Positions 1-17,412 of a DNA stretch of 64,000 nucleotides are shown piece after piece. The stretch spans positions 1 through 64,000 of IMG/VR virus record IMGVR_UViG_3300029156_000001; one strand, 5' to 3'. A program made the translations under genes and the position numbers. The DNA is from a virus (taxonomy: Duplodnaviria > Heunggongvirae > Uroviricota > Caudoviricetes). The notes below the pieces were generated by a model. That model was not told where the DNA came from, ran no database searches, and was given only the letters and a program-made list of their open reading frames with translations. How positions within the stretch are numbered: position 1 is the stretch's first letter; each line of letters begins with the position of its first letter.

Positions 1-882
1 TGCCCCTTGCATTTGTGGCACGCATAACATAGGGGCAACCCCATGAGTGCGTATTCAGGATCTCGGCAGATGTAACATCTGTCGCTATACACATCGGTAG
101 ACGTACACCATTTCTCTTCCGTCGTCTTTTTCTCTGTCGAATATGGATCGTGATACTGTGCTTCCGTCTTTTCCCTGGCACGCTCCGCTAGACCTTTTTC
201 TAGCATCCAATATGCCGGATCATCTTTTTTCATTTTAGCCATGTCAAACGCCTCGGCTCGGTCCTGGTGCAAAGCCCGTGAACCTTGTTCCGTCGTGGCA
301 AAGCTCGTCCATTTCGTTCATAGTATCAATATAGAAAACCTGTTTGCCACGATGGATGAGTCCATTAGTAAATAGATCTTCAATGACATCTTCTGCCGCA
401 TTTGTGATCGATATACACTGATGCTGTTCACACCGATCACGAATCACGATGCTCTCCACCCCGTTCGAGATAATGTCGTATGCAAATTTCATTTCTTTTT
501 TCGAACTGGCTTTTTCGGTTCTTCTACTTCTTCGGTAGGATCAGGGTCGATCCATTCTACAGTGCCTCGTCCCTCATGGCCATGAATTGTCATGAGTGTT
601 TTGATGTTGTCGTAGATAGCTACTGACCCCAGGTTTGATAGCCATGAAAAGACAATCTTACCATTAGTGAGTTCGCAACCTTCACCCACTACGCCCGTGC
701 CACTGACGCCTGAAACGTCTTCGGCACGGACGAAGTGGAAACGTCTGATACCCGGTTTGTTAGCATTCATAGTAAAGCTTTAGCAAGAGCAAATCCTCCT
801 GCGATGAGAACAGCAGAATAAAATACTACCTCTTGCCATGATGGCACGAGCTTAGTGAGATTACTACCCCAATCGCCAAGCA

Positions 883-2148
883 TTAGAAACCTGCTTTCTT
901 GAGGGCACGCATACGTGCCTGCTCCATTTTCTGTGCAATTTTAGCACCGTCCTTGAGGGCAGCAAACTCGTGGCCTCGGACCTGTCGCATAACTGCGGCA
1001 GCTTCAAGGAGACGATCACCCTGCGGATACTCAGCCCCAGCGTGTGTGGGACCTCGGCCACGGGCGTCGGCCTTCGAGGCCATGACTACCCTACGAGCAA
1101 GTAGGTCACCCTGTACGACTCCAAGTCGCATGAGTAAACGAACCTTTTTGGCGGGCTTCAAATCAATAAATCTATGTACATTCAGATGGTCCTTTGCCGT
1201 GACCGCTCCCACCTTGCGGTGGGTGTTCGGCACCCGCAAACGCTCACACATTGCATGCACCAGCGGTACACCCAAACGTTCGTGATCGTAGTGGTGTGGC
1301 AAATTGTCGTCCGGAGTGACGGCTTTACCCAAATCGTGAACTAGGGCCGCGAACATGGTTTCGTCGTCGGCCCCAAGCTCCACGGCTCGGTCGAGCACTT
1401 CTAGCGTGTGAACGTAGGCATCGCCCTCAGGATGATACTTCTCGGGCTGGATACGCCCCTGTAGTGCTGCGATTTCTGGAAAAGCAATCTCCAGGGCATT
1501 CATCTTTTCCAGGGCACAGAAGAACCGAGAGGGTTGCGGCGTACGTAGTGCCTTCTCAAGCTCTCCCCACAAACGCTCGCCCGGAAGGTCGAGAATTTCA
1601 GGCAGGGCTTCCTGAGCAGCAAGCACAAGACCAGCACTAATTTTCATTTCAAGCTGTGCCGCAAAACGAGCGGCACGCAGAACACGCAGGGGATCTTCTG
1701 CAAAATGATAACCCACGGGGGTAAGTGCCTTGTATTCAAGGTCTTCAACGCCACCGTAAGGATCGATGATGTTGCCCGTAAAAGGGTCCATTGCCATTGC
1801 GTTGATCGTAAGATCACGACGCCTGAGGTCTTCCTCAAGGGTCACGTCTTCGGTCTGACACTCGAAGCCTGTGTAGCCGGTGCCAGTCTTGCGTTCAAGG
1901 CGGGCCATAGCTACTTCGGCACCATCTACGGTCCATACTGGAAAGCTATCGCCAACCAGCTTACCGCCTTCGTCAGTCAGTAGAACTGCAATTCGGTGGG
2001 AGGTCATGCCGACCACCACGATATCCACATCCTTGGGTCTACGACCCAAGAGCATGTCTCGTACGTATCCGCCGACGATGTACGGCTGGCCGCCAGCGTC
2101 TCGGATCCGCTCACAAAGCGGTAGATACTTTTCGTGTCTCATGACCAC
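883..2148 (-). CDS. cca: CCA-adding tRNA nucleotidyltransferase with C-terminal HD domain (bifunctional Cca-like)
   Basis: N-terminal GGxVRDxLLG...DxD polymerase-beta head motif; RxxDxTINA motif; HD phosphohydrolase motif (HDLGK) in C-terminal half; 421 aa matches bacterial Cca length. Confidence 0.85.
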   Translation of the reverse strand: MVMRHEKYLPLCERIRDAGGQPYIVGGYVRDMLLGRRPKDVDIVVVGMTSHRIAVLLTDEGGKLVGDSFPVWTVDGAEVAMARLERKTGTGYTGFECQTEDVTLEEDLRRRDLTINAMAMDPFTGNIIDPYGGVEDLEYKALTPVGYHFAEDPLRVLRAARFAAQLEMKISAGLVLAAQEALPEILDLPGERLWGELEKALRTPQPSRFFCALEKMNALEIAFPEIAALQGRIQPEKYHPEGDAYVHTLEVLDRAVELGADDETMFAALVHDLGKAVTPDDNLPHHYDHERLGVPLVHAMCERLRVPNTHRKVGAVTAKDHLNVHRFIDLKPAKKVRLLMRLGVVQGDLLARRVVMASKADARGRGPTHAGAEYPQGDRLLEAAAVMRQVRGHEFAALKDGAKIAQKMEQARMRALKKAGF

Positions 2149-2521: not shown

Positions 2522-3004
2522 CTAAAAGATGGACATATCTGTCCACTCCACTTCGTCAGGATGGGGAGCGTAGCGTGCAATCTGCTTACGCAAGGTGTCC
2601 AACGGGACACTGTGCGTATTCCGTTGATGAAGCAACTCGGGATCCCAGGGGCCGGGAGAACGGATAATCTGTACCTCGTAACCATACTGGTCAGCAAGAT
2701 CCAAATACGGTTGCATTTCTTTAATGCGAGTGCTCGTGTTCGAGACAACTACGCACGGCACGTCATGAAACATAAGGTGTTCCACCTTAAGTTGACACAA
2801 ATGATGAGCCTGAGAAAGTTTACTGCTATCAAATTTGTATTTCGAACCCGATGATCTAATAAAGAATTCATCGGCTTCAAACCATGGCAACCCGTGACGA
2901 CCAGTTTCCCAAAAACTTTGAGATTCACTAGCAAGATGTCTAGCAATTGTGCTTTTGCCAGATCCGCTTATGCCACGAACAATGATTAGTTTACGTGTTT
3001 CCAT
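2522..3004 (-). CDS. P-loop kinase, polynucleotide kinase-like (candidate RNA 5'-kinase)
   Basis: Walker A GISGSGKST at the N-terminus; ~160 aa size typical of Pnk kinase domain/AAA_33; located in the tRNA-repair neighbourhood. Confidence 0.5.
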   Translation of the reverse strand: METRKLIIVRGISGSGKSTIARHLASESQSFWETGRHGLPWFEADEFFIRSSGSKYKFDSSKLSQAHHLCQLKVEHLMFHDVPCVVVSNTSTRIKEMQPYLDLADQYGYEVQIIRSPGPWDPELLHQRNTHSVPLDTLRKQIARYAPHPDEVEWTDMSIF

Positions 3005-4126: not shown

Positions 4127-4507
4127 TCAGACAGTAGTTTGATTACGTTTTTTCGCCACGATTTCAGCTAGGGCACCCTCACGAGTAAGGGTTCCTGCGT
4201 CGATGCGGGCTTTTTGTTCACGAGATACACGGAACCGACACGGCACACCAATGGCCGCTTCGGTTTTTGCAGAGAAGTTATCGGGCGTTAGATCGGGATC
4301 GAAATAGACGCTATCGGGAACTGCGGGACGACGACTTTGTAGTTTTTGAAGACCACCACCCGCCAACCACTCTTGGAACGCCTGTTCACGATTAAGGGCT
4401 CCAGACGCAATACGCTCTTTCATTTCACGCGACACACGGAATCGTAGTCCAGTCTGTGCCGTGAAGTTATCAGCAGTAAGATCACTCATAGTATATTTTA
4501 CCTCCAT
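4127..4507 (-). CDS. hypothetical protein with internal tandem duplication
   Basis: two copies of a ~45 aa unit (F-R-V-S-R-E-x-K-x-R-I-x-x-G-x-L-x-R-E); sits immediately downstream of ssb. Confidence 0.4.
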   Translation of the reverse strand: MEVKYTMSDLTADNFTAQTGLRFRVSREMKERIASGALNREQAFQEWLAGGGLQKLQSRRPAVPDSVYFDPDLTPDNFSAKTEAAIGVPCRFRVSREQKARIDAGTLTREGALAEIVAKKRNQTTV

Positions 4508-4750: not shown

Positions 4751-5899
4751 TTAGTGAAACTCACTTCCTCCCTTTCGGAGCAAATAAGCATCAGACACAA
4801 TTTTGAAGATCATGCGTTTGGGATTCGGGTCTTTTGACCCCTTGCCCCAAGTGCGTTCAATGTGCCAGGGTCGCACCACGACTCCTTCGCGAATATGGCT
4901 ATCTTCGAAGGTGGTGTCGCCCTGGGCTTCTTCTACCAATTGCTCGAAATCGAACACGCCTCGTGTGAGCACGGGCACCAGAGGTAGGCCATATTCCTTT
5001 TCTAGATACTCAAGCGTTGACCACGGCAAGTATTGACCGTTTAGGGAAATGTCGAATACACGATATCCCTTCTCGCTCTTGGCTCCATAGTGAAGATCCT
5101 GTACTCCCGCACCATAGATTTCACCAAAGATAAGGACGGAGTTGAGTTCGCCGTCCATGTCACGGCCCCATGCATGCACGGCCCACTCGAAGATACGTCC
5201 GAGTAGATCGTAGTGCAATTCTGCCGGTAGCCCATAGACGCCGCAGTCTCCGGGGTCACGCTGAGTACGATGCGTTCCGGTTACGAATTCGAAGTTCGTA
5301 TCACGCCAACCCCGGAAATGGATGCCGTGACAGCTATCGCGGCCTTCGTCCGTGGCATCGATGCCGATACGACGAACCCACCCAATACGGCTGTTGGTGC
5401 CATGAATCTTCTCTGTTACGACGATGGGTTCGCCGTAACAGAATTTATCTCTATGATTACGGAGATTTTGGATATCCGTGTAACGGTGGAAAAGCGGGTG
5501 TTCGTACCGCATCTGTCCCGCCGACATACCAGCAGGAGGAGCGGGCGGCTCATATTTCGTGATACCGTAATGTTCGCTCAAATCGGCACCGATTTCGGCA
5601 CCGCTTTCGTTGGGAACAAGAAATCCGAAGCTCACGACTTGTCGGAGTCGGGCAGCCCTAACGCGGCCAGAGTCCGCGTTCTTTTTGAAGGCAAGATACT
5701 GAGCTACGCCCCACTCCTCGGCCTGAGGCCGGGGAACCATACTATCAGGCTGTACGTGTACTAGAACGTCCCCAACGCTATGGGTATCCTTGCCTACGAT
5801 CACATCCCAGCCGCCGACCGTGGCCACTTCCAGCCGGTCAGCGTTCGGGTGCGGCTTGATCGCTTCGATGGCGACCGGCTGTACTACTAGTTCACTCAC
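4751..5899 (-). CDS. RNA ligase (Rnl2-like nucleotidyltransferase) fused to N-terminal tRNA-binding (CsaA/Trbp111/Myf-type) domain
   Basis: N-terminal ~110 aa with HPNADRLxV...G...VIVG...GDxV OB-fold tRNA_bind signature. Then motif I EKIHGTN (identical to T4 Rnl2), FGEIYGxGxQ motif, EGVVVRP motif IV and C-terminal K-x-K motif V. Confidence 0.75.
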   Translation of the reverse strand: MSELVVQPVAIEAIKPHPNADRLEVATVGGWDVIVGKDTHSVGDVLVHVQPDSMVPRPQAEEWGVAQYLAFKKNADSGRVRAARLRQVVSFGFLVPNESGAEIGADLSEHYGITKYEPPAPPAGMSAGQMRYEHPLFHRYTDIQNLRNHRDKFCYGEPIVVTEKIHGTNSRIGWVRRIGIDATDEGRDSCHGIHFRGWRDTNFEFVTGTHRTQRDPGDCGVYGLPAELHYDLLGRIFEWAVHAWGRDMDGELNSVLIFGEIYGAGVQDLHYGAKSEKGYRVFDISLNGQYLPWSTLEYLEKEYGLPLVPVLTRGVFDFEQLVEEAQGDTTFEDSHIREGVVVRPWHIERTWGKGSKDPNPKRMIFKIVSDAYLLRKGGSEFH

Positions 5900-6215
5900 T
5901 CTGGAAACGCTTTCTGATATCGCCGCCGATACCCCTTAATCCTTTTTCAAGATCATCTGCAAGCTGATCCTTGTCCACACGATCGAGAACGTCTCTTGCT
6001 TCCTCCCCAACAGATTGACGAACCTTGTCTACCATTTCAACGGCTTGTTCTGCCGTATCATTAGCTTTTTCAAGGTTATCATTGAGGCGTTTTACTTGAA
6101 AACACGCGAGCAGTAGCACGGCTACGGCAGCGACAATTAGAATAACTCGGGATCTTTTCATTCGCTTTCGCTCATAGTATTTTGGTGAGGGCGGCGAGAC
6201 TCGAACTCGCAACAT
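5892..6215 (-). CDS. small signal-anchored membrane protein
   Basis: N-terminal basic stretch followed by single hydrophobic helix (VILIVAAVAVLLLACF). Confidence 0.35.
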   Translation of the reverse strand: MLRVRVSPPSPKYYERKRMKRSRVILIVAAVAVLLLACFQVKRLNDNLEKANDTAEQAVEMVDKVRQSVGEEARDVLDRVDKDQLADDLEKGLRGIGGDIRKRFQSE

Positions 6216-6259
6216 CTAGCTTCTAAGGCTAGCGACTCTTCCAATTGGCCTACGCCCCC
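6183..6259 (-). tRNA. tRNA, short variable arm, apparent anticodon UAG (Leu-type) with A73 and encoded CCA
   Basis: hand fold: acceptor GGGGGCG/CGCCCTC, T-arm GCGAG-TTCGAGT-CTCGC, anticodon arm CTAGC-CTTAGAA-GCTAG; body resembles Trp-type tRNA. Confidence 0.55.
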
Positions 6260-6272
6260 GTATTTTGTGTTT

Positions 6273-6350
6273 TGGTGAGGTAGGTGGGAGTCGAACCCAC
6301 AAACTTCTAGTTTTTGAGACTAGTGACTCTGCCAATTGGCCTACTACCTC
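6273..6350 (-). tRNA. tRNA, short variable arm, apparent anticodon CAA (Leu-type) with A73 and encoded CCA
   Basis: paralog of the 6183-6259 tRNA (same D-arm TAGGCCAATTGG); anticodon arm CTAGT-CTCAAAA-ACTAG; T-arm GTGGG-TTCGACT-CCCAC. Confidence 0.55.
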
Positions 6351-6360
6351 ATTTGGGAGT

Positions 6361-6912
6361 TTACTCCCAGATGTATCTTTCTCCGTTCCAGCGACGACGC
6401 TTGGATTGTTCTTCTGGAAATCTAAAAGTGCCGATCACTCCTGGGGTCATGAGATCGGGTTGAAAGTTTTTACCGTATTGTTCTCGAAGCTCGGCGGTGT
6501 CTACGAGTTTCAGTTGTGGTTCCTGCGTCTCGACACAGGGGTTCCCATCTAGATCGAGGGCCTTTCCCCAATCTTTTAGAGTTGGCTTTGGCCATTCCAT
6601 TTTGCCTGCCGGTGCGTTATAGATACGATGGATACTGGCATCGAACTTGAGTTCGGTCACGGGGATCGGATCGTCCTTTCGAAGAACCGTATCAGGAGCA
6701 ACGATTAGCCATACGCTAACCAAACCCATGTTAATTAGTTGTTCTTGGGTGTAGGTGTCCGAGGCTTGTGGCGGCCCCAGAAGCTTGCCGTCGAGCCATT
6801 GATACACATAGGCTTCGTCTTCGCCGGGTTGACTATGCCAGCTACGAACAATCGTCATTTCGAAACGCTCGCCATCAGGGTCATAACTATTACCACAGTA
6901 TCTAACTTGCAT
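6361..6912 (-). CDS. hypothetical protein
   Basis: 183 aa ORF, tightly packed with neighbours on same strand. Confidence 0.4.
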   Translation of the reverse strand: MQVRYCGNSYDPDGERFEMTIVRSWHSQPGEDEAYVYQWLDGKLLGPPQASDTYTQEQLINMGLVSVWLIVAPDTVLRKDDPIPVTELKFDASIHRIYNAPAGKMEWPKPTLKDWGKALDLDGNPCVETQEPQLKLVDTAELREQYGKNFQPDLMTPGVIGTFRFPEEQSKRRRWNGERYIWE

Positions 6913-7441
6913 CGTTCAAAATCCTAATTGCCTTCGCGGCGTGCCGCTCAGTTAAACCGTCTTTGAAACTTGTGTGAACAAAGTTTTGTCTCTGTGAAGG
7001 TAACATGTCCGAATCATCATCAAGGATAACGAATTCACGTTCGAGACGAGGAAACTCTGCTTCGTGTTCTTTTAGCCAAAGTGCAATCTCGTCTCCACGC
7101 TCAGGACGATGTGGCTTACCCCACGTATCGTTGACCTGTCCCTGGAAGCTTTCATGTAGGGTGCCTTGTTCGGCTTGCCACACTATACTCAAATCTTTGG
7201 TTTGAGAATGGATTGTAATGTCTCGCTCAGCGAGCCATTTTGTGAGTTTTTTGCGGCCACGACCATTGAACATTCGCCACGTTGACGATAACACCACGAT
7301 TGCATTAGTTTCTTGTACGATCCGTTGAAGACGGTCGCACATATCGGGACACAATGTTGCAACGCTGTCAGCGTGTGGACCCGTCCAGGTCTTCTGACAG
7401 TTGAGAACTCCGTCCACATCTAGGAAGATGATTTTGTGCAT
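6902..7441 (-). CDS. HAD-superfamily phosphatase (polynucleotide 3'-phosphatase-like)
   Basis: N-terminal motif I FLDVDGVL (DxDGT-type), later SSTW and DDD motifs typical of HAD/PNK phosphatase domain. Confidence 0.55.
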   Translation of the reverse strand: MHKIIFLDVDGVLNCQKTWTGPHADSVATLCPDMCDRLQRIVQETNAIVVLSSTWRMFNGRGRKKLTKWLAERDITIHSQTKDLSIVWQAEQGTLHESFQGQVNDTWGKPHRPERGDEIALWLKEHEAEFPRLEREFVILDDDSDMLPSQRQNFVHTSFKDGLTERHAAKAIRILNDAS

Positions 7442-7531
7442 TACCAGAGGAGATCTTCGGTCTGTTGCTCTGTAATCTTCATGGTGTCATTATACGCCCT
7501 AACGAGCGTAAGTCAAGCTCTTTTTAGTGAA

Positions 7532-7608
7532 TGGTCCGACTAGCAGGATTCGAACCTGCACTCGATGGGCTCTCGACCCACCTCCTCTGCCAATTGGGAT
7601 ATAGTCGG
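7532..7608 (-). tRNA. tRNA, C1-G72 acceptor, apparent anticodon GAG with C33 (identity uncertain)
   Basis: perfect 7-bp acceptor CCGACTA/TAGTCGG, T-arm GCAGG-TTCGAAT-CCTGC, encoded CCA; anticodon loop TCGAGAG is atypical. Confidence 0.5.
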
Positions 7609-7691
7609 ATGGTGGGCCTCCGAGGTAATGCTCCCCGTTCTTCTGGTTAAAAGCCAGTTGCTTCACTTTAAAAGCTTGAAGCCCTTTTGTT

Positions 7692-7768
7692 TGGTACGGG
7701 CAGAAGGATTTGAACCCTCGTAAATCGGTTTAGAAGACCGATGCATTAGTCCACTATGCTATGCCCGC
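7692..7768 (-). tRNA. tRNA-Arg (anticodon UCU)
   Basis: acceptor GCGGGCA/TGCCCGT, D-stem GCAT/ATGC, anticodon arm TCGGT-CTTCTAA-ACCGA, T-arm GAGGG-TTCAAAT-CCTTC, encoded CCA. Confidence 0.7.
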
Positions 7769-7795
7769 ATTCTTCGTTCTAACGAACGAAGTGAG

Positions 7796-7871
7796 TGGTC
7801 GGTCCCCTGGGGTACGATCCCAGATCTGACAGATTAAGAGTCTGCTATGTTGCCAATTACACCAAGGACCG
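7796..7871 (-). tRNA. tRNA, apparent anticodon CUU (Lys-type), atypical T-loop
   Basis: acceptor CGGTCCT/GGGACCG, D-stem GTGT/ACAT, anticodon arm GCAGA-CTCTTAA-TCTGT, T-arm CTGGG-ATCGTAC-CCCAG (non-canonical T-loop). Confidence 0.4.
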
Positions 7872-8251
7872 TTTTCTAGAAGTAGTCGTCGTAATCGATT
7901 GGCTCTTTTCGTTTCTCGGGGTGCTCGTCATAATACTTACCTAGATCGCGAGCCCATTCCTGATAAAATGAAAGAGGTAATTGTTTCTGTTCTTTGACAG
8001 GGCGTTCTTTACTTGTTTCAATGGCAACTGCGGCCCCCAGAAACGCTGCTATAAAAGTACCAATCATCTGGAATTTTTTGCTGATCTCTTGGAGATCGCA
8101 GAGCATTGCTGATCACAAAAATGTAGTTCGTCTTCGCAGTTGCAATGATAGGCCCATCCGAAGATGCCATCCCACCAAAATGGTTGACATCCATTCGCTT
8201 CTGCTAGTTTTTTGATTTCCCTATCGATTTCTTCGGGCATTTTGATTATGG

Positions 8252-8674
8252 TCATCTGATCGCCTCTGCAAATGCATTCAGGCCCTCTTGTGTGTCGATG
8301 TGGTAGCAATTAGGCGTACCGCCTTCGGGCCACCATTCATCCGGTGCGGGACAACCACAGTGACCCGCTACGCGAACTACTGTACCGTGCGTTTCATGAA
8401 GCTTAATGGCTTGTTCCATCGTAAGCGAAACACGGGCCGGTGCTTTCCAGGTGGCCACCCAATAGTACCACGCTCGCGTGAGCGTCCAGCCGCCCTGACA
8501 CTCTTTGGTTCCGTCAGGACCGGAACCAAGATAGCCCACAATGTTGGATCGCACCTCACCTTTGCTTCGTAAGCACTCGGGCCAAGGATCTCGGATAGGA
8601 ATACCGGCTTCAATCAATTCGTTGGTGCATTCAACATCAACGATTTCAGGTTCTTCACCAGCTAAATTCTTCAT
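8252..8674 (-). CDS. hypothetical protein (Cys/Trp-rich)
   Basis: 140 aa ORF upstream of tRNA-Ile; no recognisable motif. Confidence 0.35.
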   Translation of the reverse strand: MKNLAGEEPEIVDVECTNELIEAGIPIRDPWPECLRSKGEVRSNIVGYLGSGPDGTKECQGGWTLTRAWYYWVATWKAPARVSLTMEQAIKLHETHGTVVRVAGHCGCPAPDEWWPEGGTPNCYHIDTQEGLNAFAEAIR

Positions 8675-8682
8675 GGTGTATT

Positions 8683-8760
8683 TGGTCCGAGAGGGAGGAT
8701 TTGAACCTCCGCATCACGACTTATCAGGCCGTTGCCTTGACCAGACTTGGCTACTCTCGG
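8683..8760 (-). tRNA. tRNA-Ile (anticodon GAU)
   Basis: acceptor CCGAGAG/CTCTCGG, anticodon arm ACGGC-CTGATAA-GTCGT, T-arm GGAGG-TTCAAAT-CCTCC, encoded CCA. Confidence 0.6.
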
Positions 8761-8761
8761 T

Positions 8762-9034
8762 TTATAGCAGTCCACTAATGCGTGCTGCTTGTGCGGGCGT
8801 AAAAGGCCGCATGTTTTCGTAGTTGGAATTACCCGCGAGACGCTCGACCACTTCGACGCCATCGTACAGAGTGGCAAACCACAAGATATATCCCATAGGA
8901 GCAAATTGCTCTTGAAGTTTACGAACTTCTTGACGGGCCTCGTCAATGTTATTGACTTCAATATGAATATCTGAATCGCGGCTCGTAAAGGTGCCGTTGT
9001 GGATGCCCCACGCAAGTCTTAGTGTCTTATTCAT
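8762..9034 (-). CDS. hypothetical protein
   Basis: 90 aa ORF between tRNA genes. Confidence 0.3.
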   Translation of the reverse strand: MNKTLRLAWGIHNGTFTSRDSDIHIEVNNIDEARQEVRKLQEQFAPMGYILWFATLYDGVEVVERLAGNSNYENMRPFTPAQAARISGLL

Positions 9035-9375
9035 TTTACTACCAGTCCATAGCGTGATTTAATAGTAGCAGATTCTAGAACTACAACACGATCTTCTGGT
9101 TCAATGTAGACGCACAATAGGTCGCAAGTTGTATTATCGAAAGGAATTCGTTTTGTTCCTGATCTGTTCGGACGATGAGACTTAAGGGTAACAATCCATC
9201 CTGTGTCTTCTGGAGTTTTTGTTCTAGTTGACTTAACTTGAACTCGTTGCAGTCTATCTTTGTAGACAACTAAGTCAAAAGGAGCTTTGCCAGATGTGTC
9301 CATAAAGACAAAGTATCCCTGAGCGGCGAAATGTGCCGCACTTTTAAGCTCACCAATAGTTCCTAAATCAGACAT
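9031..9375 (-). CDS. hypothetical protein
   Basis: 114 aa ORF; start overlaps stop of upstream gene (coupled). Confidence 0.35.
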   Translation of the reverse strand: MSDLGTIGELKSAAHFAAQGYFVFMDTSGKAPFDLVVYKDRLQRVQVKSTRTKTPEDTGWIVTLKSHRPNRSGTKRIPFDNTTCDLLCVYIEPEDRVVVLESATIKSRYGLVVK

Positions 9376-9382
9376 ATATTTT

Positions 9383-9469
9383 TGGCGGAAGGTAGAGAGA
9401 ATCGAACCCCGGGCCTTTTACAACCCCCCTGGTATTCAACACCAGTTTGTCACCTTGACGGTACCTTCC
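9383..9469 (-). tRNA. tRNA-Ser (anticodon UGA), type II
   Basis: 87 nt, acceptor GGAAGGT/ACCTTCC, anticodon arm CTGGT-GTTGAAT-ACCAG, long variable arm, T-arm GGGG-TTCGATT-CTCT, encoded CCA. Confidence 0.6.
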
Positions 9470-9944
9470 ATTTTTATTCGTGACTCAATCGACGCACGTT
9501 ACCTAGTGCCTGATGCATGGCACGAGTATAACCTTCCCAAAAGCGATAATCACTCAGGCGAGCACGAAAAGCGTCACAGTCCTTATCGCCAATTTCAGTG
9601 AGTTCCTTTTCAGCGGAAGCGGCACGCTCTTGGGCCGACTTGAGTTCTTCCTCAAGCTCCGCAACGATGCCCTTGTACTCGAACTTACTGAGCACGACGC
9701 TTTAGTCCCCGCTTTGACCAAGGGGCTCGTTGACTCTTACGTTGCTCACGCCGACGGGCTTTGATAAAGCTCTCTTCGTTGGCCTCTTGGGTCGGACGCG
9801 GCATATAGCCACGGAGCCAACGAAGGATGGTTTCGTTCACAAGCTCACCATTACGTCGAGCTTCCATCAGAGACGCGATGGCGTCCTTGGGCGTCACTTT
9901 GCCCTTTTTGACCCGTTCGCGTAGCGAACCTTCTTTCAACAGAC

Positions 9945-10421
9945 TCATTCTAAGTCCTCCGGAAAATGTTTTTTGGTTATAACCTCCCCGATACCGAGAT
10001 CGAGGATGTCTCGCAGTAGTCGTTGTACGTCACCATCATACGGTGCTTTGAGCCGTACGTCAAGCCAAGAGTAGAATTTTTCGTCTTCGACTATCTCGAT
10101 CTCGGTATCGGGGAGATCTTCAAAGTAATCTGCGTCCGTTCCGGCCGCAGGCCGGATCCGAATGATGATGTCACTCTTGCGAGAAGTAGAAGGGCGTGGG
10201 CCTTTTGTTGTTTTGGTCTCACGGATATTCGCCTTAGGCGAAGTTCCGTCATTTTGGAAATTTTGCGGCCCACCCCTTAGTCTACTCTGCAACGCCTCCT
10301 CAGGCGACAGCCCGAGGCTGATCTCTTCTTTTGTACGTCGGAAACGCTTTTCACCAGTCACAGCCTTGTACGACTCAATGTCGTGGATCTGGGCCGCGTG
10401 TTCGGGAGTGATTTCATTCAT
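9945..10421 (-). CDS. hypothetical protein
   Basis: 158 aa ORF. Confidence 0.35.
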   Translation of the reverse strand: MNEITPEHAAQIHDIESYKAVTGEKRFRRTKEEISLGLSPEEALQSRLRGGPQNFQNDGTSPKANIRETKTTKGPRPSTSRKSDIIIRIRPAAGTDADYFEDLPDTEIEIVEDEKFYSWLDVRLKAPYDGDVQRLLRDILDLGIGEVITKKHFPEDLE

Positions 10422-10464
10422 GACACCCTAGTATAGCACGCAAAGCGTGCTGGTCAAGTTATTT

Positions 10465-10552
10465 TGGAAGTAAGTGTGGGATTCGAACCCACGGGGCTGT
10501 TACACCCGGCAGCTTAGCAAGCTGCTACAATAAGCCACTCTGTCAACTTACC
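10465..10552 (-). tRNA. tRNA-Ser (anticodon GCU), type II
   Basis: 88 nt, anticodon arm GCAGC-TTGCTAA-GCTGC, long variable arm, T-arm GTGGG-TTCGAAT-CCCAC, encoded CCA. Confidence 0.6.
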
Positions 10553-10559
10553 ATTATTT

Positions 10560-10634
10560 TGGAGACCGGGGTGCGAATCGAACGCACGTATGAAGGGTTG
10601 CAGCCAACAGCCTAAGCCACTCAGCCACCCGGCC
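10560..10634 (-). tRNA. tRNA, possibly Cys (anticodon GCA?) with U73; anticodon stem poorly paired
   Basis: acceptor GGCCGGG/CCCGGTC (G2-U71), T-arm GTGCG-TTCGATT-CGCAC, U73 discriminator, candidate loop CTGCAAC. Confidence 0.35.
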
Positions 10635-10910
10635 TAATTTACGGCATTGAAATGTGTTCTGTTGATAGATAGATGGTTCCGTCACGACTCCATGTACAAT
10701 ACCACCCTAAAGCAGCAAGGTGTTCTTCGATCAACTCTTTTCTGGTATTGCCATATATGTTTACGTGTGCATATAATTTACCTTGACGTAAACGTTTGGC
10801 AATAGTACGCAAAGCACGTCGAACTTCCTTTTGGAGTGTTTTTTGCTTGCGTTTTTCATACATGGGCAGATACTTGTCGGTAAACTGTCGTGTTGTCGGA
10901 ATTTTTACCA

Positions 10911-11477
10911 TCATCCAATCTCCAAATCTAATTTTTCGAAACCACGATCTTCTACCAACTCCAAGTCCGTTCCGGACTTGAGCATACGATCATACAATAC
11001 AATCGAGACAGCTACGGCGAGATTGGTGCAATGTCGCGACGGGATTTGAATAAAGTGATGACAGTGTTGAAGCGTCACACGCTCTAGGCCACCGTCTTCG
11101 GGACCGAAGACGTAGATGGCATTTTTAGGATGTTCAAACGTCGTCAAGGGCTGGGTGCCCGGCGTGATCTCTACGGCTACCGGAACGGCGTCTTGAAATT
11201 GATCAAAGGGTCTGTCATACTGCCTAAGCTCAACGTCCGCATAGCCCTTCATGCGTTCCTCGCGGGGCAGACGATGCTTGCGATTCATGGAGACGCGGTT
11301 GCCCGTGTACCACAGTTGCCCCATTCCGAAGCACGAACAAGACCGTAGGACAGCACCGACATTACGAGCGTGCTTCGGATTAGTTAGGACGACGGCAGGA
11401 GGTACGCCGAACTTCTTTTTGCCCGGCTCAAAGGACTCCATGTCGCGAGTGAGTTTATCACGTAGTTTGTTGGTCAT
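10911..11477 (-). CDS. SpoU/TrmH-family RNA 2'-O-methyltransferase
   Basis: NVGAVLRSCSCFG motif (SPOUT class N-x-GA-x-x-R-x-x-x-x-FG), 188 aa. Confidence 0.65.
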   Translation of the reverse strand: MTNKLRDKLTRDMESFEPGKKKFGVPPAVVLTNPKHARNVGAVLRSCSCFGMGQLWYTGNRVSMNRKHRLPREERMKGYADVELRQYDRPFDQFQDAVPVAVEITPGTQPLTTFEHPKNAIYVFGPEDGGLERVTLQHCHHFIQIPSRHCTNLAVAVSIVLYDRMLKSGTDLELVEDRGFEKLDLEIG

Positions 11478-11759
11478 CCCACAACTCTTTCAGAAATCTG
11501 GGTGGAAAAGCTTTCTTTTTACGTCTACACCAGTCAAATACAAAATCCCATTGACGTTGCGAAGGAAATGCTGGTTTGCTCGCCAAGTAAAACCAATTGA
11601 ACTTATCGATGCCTGGATCACCCTTCAAAGTCATGAAACCTCGACGCTCTACCTCTGCCTCGCCCTTTTGGCCAACGAGATCAAAGGCTAGATCACAGTG
11701 GCCCCAGGCATGACAAGCGTGAAACGTGCCATCGCGGGCAAGGTATCCGAGTTCAGGTT

Positions 11760-12182
11760 TCATGACACATCCTTTATTCGTCGTTGTTTGTCACAATGTT
11801 TACACTCATCATTAAGACCAAAGGGTTTACTGGCGTTTTTAGAAAAGGTATTGTGAGGTAGGTAAATACGACATCTGTAGCATCGAATATTACCATCTAT
11901 GTCAGTAATTCTCCGTCCTCGCCTACCGGCTTCACTATTGCATGTCTTGTGTGAAAGTGCAACGTTATTTACATCAAAGAAAAGCACCTGAGGGTTGTTA
12001 CTGTCCAGCCAACTAACCTTGTGGTCAATTGACATATCTTGTGGCCTTTCGATAATTTGACCACATCTATAGCATGTTGTCAATCTTAATCGCTGAGCAA
12101 AACTATACAGTAAAGCTTTTACTAGCCTGTTGGTAGCGGTACCTATAGGCATGCCCAACTGCTGTCTTTTCTTTTTGCTCAT
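11760..12182 (-). CDS. HNH endonuclease (start trimmed to internal Met to avoid overlap)
   Basis: CYRCG...IDHKVSWLDSNN...N...HKTCN HNH motif; ORF track extends to 12437 but overlaps the next gene. Confidence 0.55.
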   Translation of the reverse strand: MSKKKRQQLGMPIGTATNRLVKALLYSFAQRLRLTTCYRCGQIIERPQDMSIDHKVSWLDSNNPQVLFFDVNNVALSHKTCNSEAGRRGRRITDIDGNIRCYRCRIYLPHNTFSKNASKPFGLNDECKHCDKQRRIKDVS

Positions 12183-12262
12183 GTTGGTTACGGGGCTGAG
12201 AATTGCACTCAGTTCCCTTGATTCAAAGTCAAGGATGTTTCTGTTACACCACCCCGTAGTGA

Positions 12263-12595
12263 TTACTTTTTGCGGCGGGCCGCAGATTCGCGACGACGAC
12301 GACGCTCTCTCTTTTTCTTCGCGGAGTATTTGGCCAAGCCACCAATTACACCAACGAAAACGCATGCCGCCAGGAATAGTACCATGATGGCGGCGACAAA
12401 GGCGAGCGGTCCCCAAAAGGGACAAGTCACCCACCACCAGGACCAGCCAGCGACGACGCCGACTTCCCCAAGTTTGAGTCCGACGAACAGCAGGCCAAGC
12501 AGGCCAAGAATAGGAAATGCGGGGCGAGCGGTTTCGGTAGACATGATTTTCTTCCGTTTGTTCGGCTTAGGAGCCGAGGTCATAGTAAGTTTCAT
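12263..12595 (-). CDS. small membrane protein (two TM helices, basic C-terminus)
   Basis: hydrophobic segments GLLGLLFVGL and FVAAIMVLFLAACVFVGVIGGL followed by KKKRERRRRRE. Confidence 0.4.
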   Translation of the reverse strand: MKLTMTSAPKPNKRKKIMSTETARPAFPILGLLGLLFVGLKLGEVGVVAGWSWWWVTCPFWGPLAFVAAIMVLFLAACVFVGVIGGLAKYSAKKKRERRRRRESAARRKK

Positions 12596-12648
12596 GCCCT
12601 ATTATACTCGCTCTGCTCGTGAAGTCAAACTTTAACTTCGAAATGTTC

Positions 12649-12722
12649 TGGCGACCCCAGGGAGTATCGATCTCCCGCTACCACCGTGACAGGGTGGCGT
12701 TCTACCATTAAACTATGGAGTC
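12649..12722 (-). tRNA. tRNA-Asp (anticodon GUC)
   Basis: acceptor GACTCCA/TGGGGTC, D-stem GTTT/GAAC, anticodon arm CCACC-CTGTCAC-GGTGG, T-arm GGGAG-ATCGATA-CTCCC, encoded CCA; 5' 15 nt overlap the last codons of pyrB. Confidence 0.65.
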
Positions 12723-13523
12723 AAGTGATGTTGCTAGTAAGGTTTTGCGTATTTGAAGACCGTATGCGACTTGCTTAAAATACACAGCCCTTTTGTCTTG
12801 TTCAATTGCGTTCGGCAATTCTTGTGTGCGTGGTAGTGGATGCATGATGATGGCATCTTCCTTAATATCAGGAAGCATTTTCTCCTCCATCCCATACAAG
12901 ACACCTTCTCTTTTGAGAGAGCGTTCCGTTTGTGGTCGTGTCATGTAAATGACATCGGCTTTGCCAATTTCATTGATATCTGGAAAATCAAAGATGTCCT
13001 GCTTGACAACCTCGACATCAAATTGATTTAGAACAGCAATGAATGAATTGATTGTACGGGCGTTTTCCAGGTCTCCCCAGATCAGAACCCTGTTGCCGTC
13101 GATCCTGCCCTTTTCTCGCCAGATAGTATAGGCGTCCGTTAGAGCCTGCGTTGGGTGACTACCGATGCCATCACCGGCATTGATGATAGGAACGGCTGCT
13201 ACTTCGGCAGCTTTTTGTGCGGCCCCCATTTCTGGATGCCTTAGCACAATAATATCGGCGTAGTTGCCCACGACCTTAATAGTATCTTCTAAAGATTCGC
13301 CTTTGGTAGTCGAGCTAGACGCAGTAGCATTCTCTACGGTAATGACGCCCCCGCCTAACCTAAGTGCGGCCGACTCAAACGACAATCGTGTTCTGGTGGA
13401 TGGCTCGTAAAAGAGAGTGGCTAAAACAAACGGATCACACTCGGCCACTTCGGCAGCAGACGTATGGAAGATCCTTTCTAGCGTATCTCTAGAAAACTGA
13501 TCGGCTTTTAGAATGTGCTTCAT
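12708..13523 (-). CDS. pyrB: aspartate carbamoyltransferase catalytic chain
   Basis: STRTR carbamoyl-phosphate binding motif, HPTQALTD, C-terminal HPLPR (ATCase rather than OTCase); ATG at 13521-13523 preferred over the TTG listed at 13541. Confidence 0.75.
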   Translation of the reverse strand: MKHILKADQFSRDTLERIFHTSAAEVAECDPFVLATLFYEPSTRTRLSFESAALRLGGGVITVENATASSSTTKGESLEDTIKVVGNYADIIVLRHPEMGAAQKAAEVAAVPIINAGDGIGSHPTQALTDAYTIWREKGRIDGNRVLIWGDLENARTINSFIAVLNQFDVEVVKQDIFDFPDINEIGKADVIYMTRPQTERSLKREGVLYGMEEKMLPDIKEDAIIMHPLPRTQELPNAIEQDKRAVYFKQVAYGLQIRKTLLATSLDSIV

Positions 13524-13527
13524 GTTT

Positions 13528-13601
13528 TGGCAGGGGATCAACGAATCGAACGCTGGTCTTCGGGTTTGGAATCCGATATGTTACCACTACACCAATCCCC
13601 T
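13528..13601 (-). tRNA. tRNA-Trp (anticodon CCA)
   Basis: A1-U72 and G73 as in E. coli tRNA-Trp, acceptor AGGGGAT/ATCCCCT, anticodon loop TTCCAAA, T-arm CAGCG-TTCGATT-CGTTG, encoded CCA. Confidence 0.65.
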
Positions 13602-13735
13602 ATATTTCATAATGACACTTAAGATACCAAAGTGTAGTTTATCTGGCACTATGATTGGTGCCGCCCCCAGGTAACGCTCCTGGTCCCCCTGGGTTTCAAC
13701 CAGATGTGCAAGACTTCTACACCAAGGCGGCGATT

Positions 13736-14869
13736 TTACGGCAGGTCGATAGGATCTCGAAAGACGATACCACCTACGAAAATTCGTGGAATCTGATCGT
13801 CCGTCCGATCAAAGAATCGAACGGTCAATATTTTTCCAATGTACTGTTGTCGTTCTTCGTACTGCCGACGACGTTCCGGCATGGAACCCTTCCAAAGACA
13901 CTCAAAGGTTGCATCCGTCACGTCATTGCGACAGACAAAGACGGCATGACCCTTCATTTTACCTATACCATCGATCACGTCTACCACTTCGAACTCGGCA
14001 TCTTGAAACTCTTTCACTTTCAAGAGTTCAGCAGAACGATATCCCCAAATGTATGTGCCGTTATGACTTCGTAGAATAGCACCCTCATATCCCCGCGTTA
14101 CAAACGTGCCATATGCTGACCACATATCAGTTTCGTTTGCAACCAGGACGGTTGGCACCCTTTCCACATTCTTACTTGGCTGGAAATGAGGTTTGAGATA
14201 AAGAGCGTCGGAGCGAGCCTTCCATGAGAGAGTGTCGTCCCCTAGTACCACCGGCATATCGTAAACATGAAAGATGAGTCGGGCACTTTCGGGCTTATAC
14301 GATTTAGTGCCGGGGACCGCCGATTTTGCCCAAGACGTAATTCGCTGACATGATTCTCCGTGAGTGTATAGTTCGCCATCTAGAGTGATACCTTCGGGCA
14401 GCCAGTTGGCAAGCTGTTCTTGTACCAGGGGGATCGTCCACGGCTTCCCTTGGCGGGAGGTCAGGGCGATACTACCATCGGCGGCCCTCTGAGCAAGGCA
14501 ACGTACCCCATCTAGCTTAGGCTGAATGTCTACGCCGCCTTCATAACTAAGATTTTTCCTTTTCGAGCCCTTGAAAGAATGGGCCAACATAGGCAAGGGT
14601 AGTTGCTCTTGAGCATCCTCTGGAGTAAGCGAGTATTTCCGCTCTAGTTTATATGTGTGTAGCGACTGTGCCTCCAGTACGGCTTGCTCGTCGGGAGTAG
14701 TAGCATTCTTACGTCCCGCGTTCTTTGCCTCGGCTGTCTTACGACTGATTTGAAGCTTACCCCCGACGGTGCCATATTCCGTCAGGATATCTGCACCGTC
14801 GGTGAAGACTCGCCACTGACGGAGATCGCCGCCTTTAGCTTTGTGAAACAGTGTAGGTAGTTTTTGCAT
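13736..14869 (-). CDS. ATP-dependent DNA ligase (T7-type)
   Basis: motif I KLDGVRCLA (K-x-D-G-x-R), motif IV EGAILR, motif V LLKVKEF; 377 aa. Confidence 0.8.
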   Translation of the reverse strand: MQKLPTLFHKAKGGDLRQWRVFTDGADILTEYGTVGGKLQISRKTAEAKNAGRKNATTPDEQAVLEAQSLHTYKLERKYSLTPEDAQEQLPLPMLAHSFKGSKRKNLSYEGGVDIQPKLDGVRCLAQRAADGSIALTSRQGKPWTIPLVQEQLANWLPEGITLDGELYTHGESCQRITSWAKSAVPGTKSYKPESARLIFHVYDMPVVLGDDTLSWKARSDALYLKPHFQPSKNVERVPTVLVANETDMWSAYGTFVTRGYEGAILRSHNGTYIWGYRSAELLKVKEFQDAEFEVVDVIDGIGKMKGHAVFVCRNDVTDATFECLWKGSMPERRRQYEERQQYIGKILTVRFFDRTDDQIPRIFVGGIVFRDPIDLP

Positions 14870-15134
14870 TGGTGATTTTCAGCCAGCGGATCAAATGTTT
14901 GACAGTTGTGGGACCAATGAAACAGTGTCCTTCGCCAAAGGTGTCATGCACAAGCCTGTGACATGGTTTACAAAGGCCAATTGTGATGGCACCCTTACGT
15001 CTGGAAAGAAGGTGCTCGTTGAACCTAGGATCCTTACGTGGCACCATATGATGCCGCGTAAAATCGTCCTTTTTGCACGGTCCACAAGCTCGACAAGTGG
15101 GAGGATAGAGCCATTTGCGTTTTTTAGCCATCAA
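14835..15134 (-). CDS. small HNH endonuclease
   Basis: CxxCxxC ... HHMVPR ... CKPCHRLVH zinc-ribbon HNH signature. Confidence 0.6.
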   Translation of the reverse strand: MMAKKRKWLYPPTCRACGPCKKDDFTRHHMVPRKDPRFNEHLLSRRKGAITIGLCKPCHRLVHDTFGEGHCFIGPTTVKHLIRWLKITNAKTTYTVSQS

Positions 15135-15382
15135 TCAACCCTACTGAGAATGTAGTCTTCTTCGAGAGCGTCCCATAGCCATTGTACTGCTAGTGACTTA
15201 GATGAAAAACCAGGACTGAGTTCTTCATAAAAGCGTTTATACTGGACGTTTTTGATGCCGGTCCACCACAATCCCTTATGTTTAAAAACGGCGTACTGGC
15301 CATTGTCAAAGGTTGATATCTTCATAGTGTTTGGTAGGCCCGGAAGGAATTGCACCCTCATCTGATGGTTCGTAGCCACCAA
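15131..15382 (-). CDS. hypothetical protein
   Basis: 83 aa ORF translationally coupled to downstream HNH gene. Confidence 0.3.
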   Translation of the reverse strand: MVATNHQMRVQFLPGLPNTMKISTFDNGQYAVFKHKGLWWTGIKNVQYKRFYEELSPGFSSKSLAVQWLWDALEEDYILSRVD

Positions 15383-15696
15383 TGCTGTCTGTTACACCAC
15401 AGGCCCATTTGTTTCTGTTATTCTACACGCCGCAGGCGTGTTGGGGTGAAAGTTCGGTTCTGCCCCGAATCCTCTCGGGTCACAGCCGAGTAGGCTACTA
15501 TTACAACACAATCACCGTTCGCTCCGCTCACGGATTTAGATGTACCGCGAGCAGTCTTTCGAGCACCACAGACAAAACCTCTTCTGCAAGTAGATTCGTG
15601 TTGTCATGGTGTTCGTCTTACTAATCACCTTCCAGGCGGTCATATCATGAATGCCGAAGAAGCATATCACTTGACGCCACCACGGGCCGGTAAACA

Positions 15697-16365
15697 TCAG
15701 AATGAGTAGCCCAGAAGGACGAAGAGTGTACCGCCATTGAGGCTGGGGCTGTTCACGAAGATATCAGAGTCACTGGCTCCGAAGTGCTGCCGGTACAGAC
15801 CCGCGAGGCTCCAGTTGTCGGACATGAACCATCTGCTGCCGACTTGAGCGTACGGAGCATAGCCGGTGTCACGGTCACTGATAACAGACGTGTACGTGGG
15901 GTCGATGTCGGTATCGATACTGAAAGCCGAGACGCCACCACTAGCAAAAACTTGCCAACGATCAGTCAGCATCCAGTTTTTACGAAGGCCAAAGTAGAGT
16001 TCACGGACCGTCGAGGTTGTGTCACTCACGGGGCGGTTTTCGTAAAAGCCGTCGCTGGAAATGTTCTGGCCCAGCGAAAAGCCAACTTCCGGACCGAAGC
16101 CGTCCTTGCCGCAGAAATCGGCCTGGACGGTAAAAAGCTGTTGCTCGTCGGTTTGCTCCCAATCATTCTGGGCATCGTAGTTTCGCCAACCGTATCCGAT
16201 ATCGACGGTCGGGGCGAGTTGTCCTTGCGGGCCTTGACAGGCGGCGAGGAGGACTAGGGTTGCCGTAGCAAGTAGTAGATTCTTCATGCGTGCATTATAC
16301 TGCACGCATGGAGGGTTGTCAACCTTCTTCTGCTTCAATTTGTTGCAGGGCGTGTGCTTTGGCAA
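15697..16365 (-). CDS. outer-membrane beta-barrel protein with lipoprotein-type signal (Lom/Ail/OmpX-like)
   Basis: signal peptide with LAAC lipobox, alternating amphipathic beta-strand pattern, aromatic-rich, C-terminal ...GYSF (terminal Phe typical of OM beta-barrels). Confidence 0.5.
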   Translation of the reverse strand: MPKHTPCNKLKQKKVDNPPCVQYNARMKNLLLATATLVLLAACQGPQGQLAPTVDIGYGWRNYDAQNDWEQTDEQQLFTVQADFCGKDGFGPEVGFSLGQNISSDGFYENRPVSDTTSTVRELYFGLRKNWMLTDRWQVFASGGVSAFSIDTDIDPTYTSVISDRDTGYAPYAQVGSRWFMSDNWSLAGLYRQHFGASDSDIFVNSPSLNGGTLFVLLGYSF

Positions 16366-16497
16366 TGCCTACCTCAGAGGCAAACTTGAAAGCGAAAATT
16401 AGGACTGTGCCTGTAATTACCGCAATTAGGACTTTTGAAGTGTTTTCGTTGATTTCGATTTTCATTAATCTCGTGCCTCGACTAGAGTGGTCGGGAA

Positions 16498-16570
16498 CCC
16501 GAGAATCGCACTCGGAGCTTCGGCTTATGAGGCCGACGTGTTACTGTTACACCAATTCCCACTCGTTTTA
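16498..16570 (-). tRNA. tRNA-Met (anticodon CAU), elongator or Ile2-type
   Basis: D-stem GTGT/ACAC, anticodon arm TCGGC-CTCATAA-GCCGA, T-arm CCGAG-TGCGATT-CTCGG, encoded CCA. Confidence 0.55.
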
Positions 16571-16786
16571 CTCATGATAGTAAAATTGTGCATTACGACT
16601 AAGATCCTGCATCGCCTGTCTTAGAACGAGAGTGTGTTCATCAGGACCGCGATCCCAAATAAAACATTCCATCGCGGCGTGCCGACAGGCATTAGGCATG
16701 TAGATGCTACCATTCCGAAGAGGGGTTTCAAAATCAGGAATGATAGCTACAACAGCATTAAAGAGATCTTCTTTAGAATATTGCAT
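16568..16786 (-). CDS. hypothetical protein (start trimmed to internal Met)
   Basis: ORF track start 16822 would overlap the upstream tRNA; internal Met at MQYSKEDLF avoids the overlap. Confidence 0.3.
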   Translation of the reverse strand: MQYSKEDLFNAVVAIIPDFETPLRNGSIYMPNACRHAAMECFIWDRGPDEHTLVLRQAMQDLSRNAQFYYHE

Positions 16787-16802
16787 AGTGTTTGGTAGGG
16801 TA

Positions 16803-16881
16803 GGTGGGAGTCGAACCCACAAACGACGCAGATTTTAAGTCTACCGGCGATGCCAATTAGCCTACTACCCCGCTTGTTTCT
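16803..16881 (-). tRNA. tRNA, short variable arm, apparent anticodon UAA (Leu-type) with A73 and encoded CCA
   Basis: paralog of the 6183/6273 tRNAs: acceptor GGGGTAG/CTACCCT, D-arm TAGGCTAATTGG, anticodon arm GTAGA-CTTAAAA-TCTGC, T-arm GTGGG-TTCGACT-CCCAC. Confidence 0.5.
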
Positions 16882-17326
16882 TTTTCAAGGCAATTGTGCC
16901 TTCGCGTACCCTAACACGATACCCATTATCGGTCCAGAAAGCACATTCGTCAACAGCGTCTTGGCGTCTGCCAATTGTGACCTGTAAGGCTTGCCAAGGC
17001 TCGTTGTCGGCATTGCGGCCCAGAATGATCCAGACGGGTTCGCTAGTCTCCACGGACTTCCCCTTCTATACGATCAAAGTCTTGCATGGCCGCATGAGCT
17101 TCGTAGTAGCCGTTATTGGTGCCGGGGCTGGTACTGGACTTTTTGATGGCCAATACAAGGTTGCTTAGGCCACGAAATACCCGAATCCATTGATCTCGTG
17201 AGAGCGAGAAGGGCTGTTCGGGTGTACTCGCAGGACCAGATTTGATCAGCCAGTCTTGGTTTTCGTCAGTCATACCCTACTATACCCCAGGAAGTGATGA
17301 TTGTCAAGCACTTCCTGGGGGTTGTT

Positions 17327-17404
17327 TGGTCGGAGCGGCTGGATTCGAACCAGCGTTCTGTAGCTTCCAAGGCCACCGAGGACTCCAGACTCCTCCACGC
17401 TCCG
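17327..17404 (-). tRNA. tRNA-Pro (anticodon UGG)
   Basis: C1-G72 as in bacterial tRNA-Pro, D-stem GAGG/CCTC, anticodon arm GTGGC-CTTGGAA-GCTAC, T-arm GCTGG-TTCGAAT-CCAGC, encoded CCA. Confidence 0.7.
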
Positions 17405-17412
17405 ATTGTGAT

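Follow-up and report, generated by a model that had tools for sequence, protein, structure and literature searches.

The Rnl5 family of RNA ligases, as defined by the Shuman laboratory, is built from an N-terminal OB domain and a C-terminal nucleotidyltransferase domain with nothing past motif V (PMC4408790; PMC7261155). DraRnl (DR_B0094) of Deinococcus radiodurans is the founding member of Rnl5 and of TIGR02306, and NgrRnl of Naegleria gruberi (PDB 5COT) is the structural prototype. By way of ligase-AMP, and with a preference for Mn2+, enzymes of the family close 3'-OH(RNA)/5'-PO4 nicks in duplexes. The N module of DraRnl was described as a putative homologue of the PheRS beta OB fold, the B2 domain (Raymond & Shuman 2007; PMC1807946). 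Deletion of the N domain from DraRnl or NgrRnl lowers nick sealing and adenylylation about ten- to twenty-five-fold and leaves sealing at a pre-adenylylated nick unaffected (PMC1807946; PMC4408790). In the Michaelis complex of NgrRnl, the N-domain residues R4, D53 and K121 engage the ATP gamma-phosphate and the metal (PMC7261155). Mutational data have revealed the importance of DraRnl T163, K165, H167, G168, E230, E305, K326 and R79 (PMC1807946). Here, a further ligase gene of this kind is described at 4751-5899, on the minus strand of a stretch of 64 kilobases (kb) of Caudoviricetes DNA (positions 1 to 64,000 of IMG/VR record IMGVR_UViG_3300029156_000001, hereafter the window). Its product is very probably an Rnl5-family polynucleotide ligase dependent on ATP, belonging to a large tRNA-rich phage and acting through the predicted Rnl5 chemistry.

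In the six-frame list of open reading frames (ORFs), exactly 4751-5899 on the minus strand forms a single unbroken frame, from a GTG start codon at 5899 to a stop codon at 4751-4753, and its translation begins MSELVVQP. Translated on the plus strand, the same interval is riddled with stops. The gene model is sound, because the ligase start and the stop of the ORF upstream overlap by 8 nucleotides (nt) and the MS[ED]L N-terminus is common to the aligned ligase homologues. The gene and the parts of its product are as follows.

4751-5899 (-): complete Rnl5-family RNA ligase gene, 382 residues (ORF list; Pfam; TIGR02306; homologue N-termini)
5546-5899 (-): N-terminal OB domain, residues 1-118, the Rnl5 signature module, with a tRNA_bind-like fold
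5831-5851 (-): HPNADRL motif, residues 17-23, between OB strands one and two (alignments; profile matches)
5543-5566 (-): GITKYEPP linker, residues 112-119, with invariant K115, the counterpart of NgrRnl K121 (phmmer alignment to 5cot)
4754-5503 (-): nucleotidyltransferase (adenylyltransferase) domain, residues 133-382
5393-5413 (-): motif I, EKIHGTN, residues 163-169, with K164 as the predicted AMP-accepting lysine (alignments of 40 homologues and DraRnl)
5294-5371 (-): insert of about 26 residues (177-202), in the hairpin after motif I (gapped in most homologue rows)
5111-5128 (-): motif III, FGEIYG, residues 258-263, with E260 (homologue, NgrRnl and DraRnl alignments)
5045-5056 (-): motif IIIa, FDIS, residues 282-285 (homologue and NgrRnl alignments)
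4868-4891 (-): motif IV, REGVVVRP, residues 337-344, with E338 (homologue, DraRnl and NgrRnl alignments)
4793-4810 (-): motif V, IFKIVS, residues 364-369, with K366 (homologue and DraRnl alignments)

By membership, fold and conserved catalytic residues, this phage ligase is an Rnl5 enzyme. The N-terminal OB module (Pfam PF21189 'PHA02142 OB-fold', residues 11-96, E 2.4e-14) is followed by the nucleotidyltransferase domain, for which the RNA_ligase match anticipated by the first-pass annotation was found (PF09414, residues 157-347, E 3.2e-18), and a match to PHROG 968 'RNA ligase' spans residues 9-377 (E 1.5e-47). The protein ends 16 residues past K366 of motif V, with a C-terminus that aligns with that of DraRnl and no C-terminal appendage. 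The NCBIfam equivalog model TIGR02306 (RNA_lig_DRB0094), which was built around DraRnl, gave 156.8 bits (E 6e-46; cutoff 151.15). A tblastn search of plasmids recovered DraRnl on D. radiodurans MP1 at about 30% identity over residues 16-381 (96% of the query, E 9e-18). In searches of PDB sequences, NgrRnl was the best match of the single sequence (5COT and others, E 1e-9) and reached E 1e-28 with a 40-sequence profile, in an alignment extending through motif IV; by sequence, the significant solved-structure relatives are the N. gruberi RNA ligase entries only.

An RNA ligase joined to a tRNA-binding-type domain had been considered an unfamiliar architecture in the first-pass annotation. The domain types were recognized correctly; the novelty was not, for the fusion of OB and ligase domains is the hallmark of Rnl5, and it had seemed unfamiliar because the comparison was made with Rnl1, Rnl2 and Rnl3 alone. 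The same two domains occur in nearly all of the 120 homologues among the matches listed, the few without PF21189 being mostly truncated, and also in 440 phage records, many of which carry the annotation 'RNA ligase'. PaP1 gp079 ('DRB0094 family') and CcrColossus gp167 are annotated examples. The phage ligase is thus a fairly divergent addition to a known family, and many phage genomes have its kind annotated already. It shares with DraRnl the domain order and the lack of a C-terminal appendage, but is about 40 residues longer, with the insert of about 26 residues after motif I and another of 7 residues before motif V. The genes also differ in their setting, since that of DraRnl lies in a radiation-induced operon of a bacterial megaplasmid, whereas the phage gene lies in an island of tRNA and RNA-repair genes. 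NgrRnl, at 23% identity, differs in having KLDGS as motif I.

All of the sequence motifs named in the first-pass annotation (HPNADRL, EKIHGTN, FGEIYG, FDIS, REGVVVRP and IFKIVS) were recovered at the residues listed above, and alignment of the 40 homologues with the two characterized enzymes showed how closely they are kept. In motif I, E163, K164, H166 and G167 are invariant; T162, K164, H166 and G167, invariant or nearly so, align with T163, K165, H167 and G168 of DraRnl, and T-E-K-x-H-G is common to the two ligases. Motif III contains the invariant G259, E260 and G263, with counterparts in NgrRnl (GEIIG, E227) and DraRnl (E230), and motif IIIa contains the invariant F282 and D283 (FDIY in NgrRnl). 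E338, G339 and V341 of motif IV are likewise invariant and correspond to EGVVV with E305 in DraRnl and to REGLVFK in NgrRnl, as is K366 of motif V, which corresponds to K326 of DraRnl (VKLISDAY). The equivalence of motif Ia with G208-T209-H210 is approximate only. Motifs I, III, IIIa, IV and V therefore occur here, with the nucleophilic lysine and the residues that are essential in DraRnl.

The insert at residues 177-202, IGIDATDEGRDSCHGIHFRGWRDTN, is found in a subset of close homologues only and carries a recurring HFxxWRD element. In the predicted structure it forms a coil and a helix (192-202), with a predicted local distance difference test (pLDDT) score of about 83. The placement of DraRnl S185 and K186 against this region by MAFFT was judged unreliable and was left unused.

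For the reaction itself, the best-supported scheme, drawn from the biochemistry of the family, would be the classic three-step pathway through K164-AMP, with the OB domain aiding both adenylylation and nick sealing. By homology, K164 of motif I would attack ATP to give ligase-AMP, the AMP would then be transferred to the 5'-phosphate at a nick, and the 3'-OH of the RNA strand would attack and seal the nick within the duplex.

The N-terminal domain keeps the residues that promote adenylylation. R79 matches R79 of DraRnl in the direct alignment, the sole family-conserved N-domain residue named for that enzyme; D52 and K115 occupy the positions of NgrRnl D53 and K121 in the phmmer alignment to 5cot, and K115 is invariant in the 40 homologues. 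It is most likely that the OB domain closes over the active site and, through D52, R79 and K115, orients the pyrophosphate leaving group of ATP for lysine adenylylation. It would also support nick sealing, as in DraRnl and NgrRnl. An independent tRNA-targeting module is less likely.

HPNADRL had been read as a signature of tRNA-binding proteins. Its counterpart at the same place in DraRnl is HPNAERL, and the element is also common to YgjH, MetRS-C and PheRS-beta; since DraRnl carries it, it is a trait of the family and not peculiar to the phage ligase. NgrRnl is without it (AGAEAIE there). The proposal of a tRNA-binding-type OB domain held in part. A significant match to Pfam tRNA_bind (PF01588), which had been expected at residues 1-110, was not obtained for residues 1-119 even at E<=10. 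The HPNAD-type strand of the tRNA_bind OB-fold subtype is present, however, and remote relatives emerge from profiles: 9 of 20 homologous N domains gave sub-threshold tRNA_bind matches (best E 7.6e-4), and a profile of these 20 domains matched PDB sequences of MetRS-C (E 1.2e-4 and 2e-4), PheRS beta (3e-3), 3bu2 (8e-3) and Escherichia coli YgjH (9.5e-3). With hhalign, the N domain was aligned to YgjH at 81.6% probability over 27 columns around HxNADKL. Judged by sequence, the domain is related to the tRNA-binding OB fold, though diverged from it. The kinship itself is not new, because it was already stated for DraRnl (PMC1807946), and one database homologue is already auto-named 'tRNA-binding EMAP/Myf-like protein' (JGI). 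Similarity to the tRNA_bind family (Trbp111, CsaA, YgjH, MetRS-C, PheRS beta B2, EMAPII/Arc1p) does not extend beyond the first 30-50 residues, and the OB domain is here fused to a ligase; in the characterized relatives it positions ATP.

The 64-kb window is phage-like. Megablast of window positions 1-24000 against isolate phage genomes gave no match, so the phage is not a known isolate. The following features of the window, and one of the source contig beyond it, surround the ligase gene.

883-2148 (-): CCA-adding tRNA nucleotidyltransferase with an HD domain (PF01743, PF12627, PF01966; PHROG 2244)
2522-3004 (-): P-loop kinase akin to the T4 polynucleotide kinase domain (Pfam AAA_33; PHROG 505 polynucleotide kinase)
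6183-21320 (-): array of 24 tRNA genes on the ligase strand, which starts 284 nt upstream of the ligase gene (ARAGORN; Rfam RF00005)
6902-7441 (-): HAD_SAK_2 ('Swiss-army-knife' HAD) phosphatase (PF18143, E 1.1e-28)
10911-11477 (-): SpoU methyltransferase
13736-14869 (-): DNA ligase
51710-52885 (-): nucleotidyltransferase of the RlaP family (RNA-ligase-associated Pol-beta), about 46 kb away from the ligase gene
17100-18164 of the source contig (L001), about 1.2-2.3 kb beyond window position 1: Rnl1-type RNA ligase (PF09511, EKLDGS motif), with an HNH gene before it

The best PDB sequence matches of the kinase are T4 Pnk (1ly1/1ltq, E 2e-5), and it may be regarded as a candidate 5'-end healing partner of the ligase. 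The HAD_SAK_2 phosphatase is a candidate partner for 3'-end healing, and phosphatases of this type have been discussed as having a role in phage RNA repair (PMC7824862). The CCA-adding enzyme matches NF008137 at E 2e-113, below the model cutoff. An HNH endonuclease gene lies in the window on the same strand as the ligase gene, and the same order around the Rnl1 gene was seen in a 74%-identical relative. The phage thereby encodes two different RNA ligases and one DNA ligase. Judged from gene context only, the phage ligase would provide the sealing step of an RNA (probably tRNA) repair toolkit, in which the T4-Pnk-like kinase, the HAD_SAK_2 phosphatase, the CCA-adding enzyme, RlaP and the separate Rnl1-type ligase would be its partners. 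Toolkits of this type in large phages have been considered a counter-defence against host nucleases that cleave tRNA (PMC7824862). The T4 Pnkp-Rnl1 pathway and the toolkits of jumbo phages offer the closest parallels, with a Pnk-like kinase, HAD phosphatase, CCA-adding enzyme, RlaP, Rnl1 and many tRNAs (PMC7824862), and the pairing of Rnl1 with a nick-sealing ligase mirrors T4 Rnl1 and Rnl2. Unlike in T4, where one Pnkp combines both activities, kinase and phosphatase are separate proteins here, the nick-sealing slot is taken by an Rnl5-type and not an Rnl2-type ligase, and the functional link is proposed from gene context only.

The tRNA array probably holds at least 25 genes on the minus strand, because Rfam gave a further tRNA match at 18959-19029 (-) (43.9 bits) that ARAGORN had not called. 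At 17413-17501 (-), directly beside a normal 75-nt tRNA-Asn(GTT) at 17505-17579, lies an 89-nt tRNA called Asn(GTT), with a Ser/Leu/Tyr-type D arm, a long, class-II-like variable arm and an encoded CCA. Related phages likewise have over-long tRNAs for Asn, Lys and Ile(TAT) (L007, 4021-4113; L009, 1711-1799; L010, 608-696). That these tRNAs of 89-93 nt contain introns in need of a splicing ligase was considered and rejected, the extra length of 17413-17501 being its variable arm and its anticodon loop being intact. The tRNA at 20945-21020 (-) has a CUA anticodon, is labelled 'Pyl' by ARAGORN (Rfam tRNA, 61.6 bits) and is a potential amber suppressor; in two unrelated viral loci (L030, 12098-12172; L039, 7429-7503), the Rnl5 homologue also has a CUA tRNA 1-2 kb downstream. 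Among the protein genes within the tRNA region, an aspartate/ornithine carbamoyltransferase-like gene at 12708-13541 (-) (PF02729 and PF00185), between tRNA-Asp and tRNA-Trp, is an auxiliary metabolic gene unusually placed inside a tRNA array, and 15697-16365 (-) encodes an outer-membrane beta-barrel (OMP_b-brl) protein. A 93-residue ORF at 489-770 (-), a short way downstream of the CCA-adding enzyme gene, has a precomputed Pfam match to Acb5 (PF26761) among those listed for the source contig. Directly downstream of the ligase gene, an ORF of 126 residues at 4127-4507 (-) contains an internal duplication, DNF[TS]A.T...RFRVSRE.K.RI..G.L.RE.A occurring twice; a Pfam search with it gave no match.

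The surroundings of ligase homologues were compared in 80 IMG/VR loci, at 29-59% identity to the phage ligase, with neighbouring protein genes counted by tblastn, so that the numbers for these are lower bounds. In 20 loci a kinase homologue is encoded no more than 10 kb from the ligase. In half of these it is directly upstream, on the same strand and within 700 nt, and the ligases there are only about 30% identical to the phage ligase. The 10 loci with this pair are L066, L069, L070, L071, L073, L076, L079, L080, L081 and L084, the kinase ending 37-675 nt before the ligase start, and the pair often comes just after an array of 13-25 tRNA genes and sometimes a phage tmRNA. Within the same 10 kb, Rnl1 was found in 8/80 loci, the CCA-adding enzyme in 8/80, DNA ligase in 6/80, RlaP in 5/80 and tRNA arrays of at least eight genes in 11/80. 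The Rnl5 homologues of L052 (16412-16759), L066 (2378-2753), L077 (5297-5771) and L079 (3716-4101) have a phage tmRNA gene, at the positions given, no more than 10 kb away. Since several of the 80 loci are probably related to one another and the counts cover the homologue loci only, the association of Rnl5 with kinase and tRNA genes is suggestive, not proven.

Other readings of the protein have also been weighed. That it is an Rnl2-family ligase of the T4 Rnl2/REL1 type with a newly gained N-terminal domain, a novel fusion, is scarcely credible. The nucleotidyltransferase core is closely similar to those of T4 Rnl2 and trypanosome REL1, Rnl2 and Rnl5 are both nick-sealing, and the 40-sequence profile matches T4 Rnl2 at E 4e-11. 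The Rnl2 motifs I, III, IV and V seen at first pass are indeed present, and EKIHGTN matches motif I of T4 Rnl2. Membership of Rnl2, by contrast, is ruled out by the TIGR02307 score (25.8 bits against a cutoff of 197) and by the missing C-terminal helical domain, in place of which there is an N-terminal OB domain, the protein stopping 16 residues past motif V. Moreover, the OB-ligase fusion is ancient and widespread in bacteria, phages and eukaryotes (PMC4408790). Membership of Rnl1 is ruled out as well, as the phage ligase has no match to PF09511 (RNA_lig_T4_1).

The remaining alternatives concern the substrate. It is improbable that the OB domain works as a Trbp111/CsaA-type module that binds tRNA and recruits the ligase to it specifically, making the protein a dedicated tRNA ligase with its specificity in residues 1-110. 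The profile matches to MetRS-C, PheRS-beta, 3bu2 and YgjH (E 1e-4 to 1e-2), the sub-threshold tRNA_bind matches and the EMAP/Myf-like name of one homologue would fit this role, as would the 24-gene tRNA array that abuts the ligase gene and the similar arrays flanking distant homologues; but no tRNA array is near in 69/80 loci, the phage ligase lacks a tRNA_bind match at E<=10, and the resemblance to tRNA-binding folds spans only about 27-50 residues around the HPNAD strand. It is as dimers that Trbp111/CsaA-type proteins bind tRNA. DraRnl, on the other hand, is a monomer (PMC5397189), DraRnl and NgrRnl seal generic nicked duplexes, the N-domain contacts that have been mapped involve the ATP gamma-phosphate and a metal (PMC7261155), and loss of the N domain hurts adenylylation and overall sealing but not step 3 (PMC1807946; PMC4408790; PMC7261155). 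A role on DNA is also unlikely, in which the ligase would seal nicks with a ribonucleotide-ended 3'-OH side during phage replication, recombination or repair. DraRnl needs RNA on the 3'-OH side alone and tolerates DNA as the 5'-PO4 and template strands, and its deletion delays genome reassembly after irradiation (PMC5397189). Besides, an SSB gene is found on the same strand, at a distance of two genes (about 630 nt) from that of the phage ligase, the ligase gene of PaP1 is near replication genes, and in the relatives L008 and L010 it directly adjoins a gene for an ATP-dependent DNA ligase. Nevertheless, the phage carries its own DNA ligase, the kinase-ligase gene pair is found again in distant phages, and the neighbourhood is mostly RNA-directed (tRNAs, CCA-adding enzyme, Pnk-like kinase, SAK HAD phosphatase, SpoU and Rnl1).

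Several points weigh against the preferred reading of an Rnl5 ligase that seals RNA. The TIGR02306 cutoff is exceeded by a small margin, and identity to characterized enzymes is 23-31%. NgrRnl R4 has no counterpart, and DraRnl K26 and Q31 are replaced by T27 and D32, the family itself being variable at these positions. The gene lies near SSB here and beside a DNA ligase gene in L008 and L010, the co-location with tRNA arrays is only suggestive, and the Rnl1-type ligase of the phage could alone handle anticodon-loop breaks. In addition, the physiological role of Rnl5 has been called uncharted, its sole genetic phenotype, that of DraRnl, being recovery from ionizing radiation with genome reassembly and not tRNA repair (PMC5397189).

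As a single enzyme, the phage ligase is of little import, the OB-ligase fusion being the textbook definition of Rnl5 and phage homologues being already annotated. Its N domain belongs structurally with the tRNA-binding OB folds. The chemistry of Rnl5 is well understood, whereas a physiological substrate has not yet been established for the family. It is conceivable, though doubtful, that in tRNA-island phages the OB domain may retain real affinity for tRNA, so that Rnl5 would specialize in sealing nicks in structured regions of tRNA, downstream of the Pnk-like kinase and complementing Rnl1. If true, dedicated tRNA sealing would be the first defined natural substrate for the family, and the recurring order of tRNA array, kinase and Rnl5, at about 30% ligase identity, would be the footprint of that role. 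Here and in about a dozen distant phage loci, Rnl5 stands beside a T4-Pnk-like kinase and a large tRNA array; with such loci, the repair of tRNA or RNA by phages as a response to host nucleases becomes a concrete hypothesis for Rnl5, and one that can be tested.
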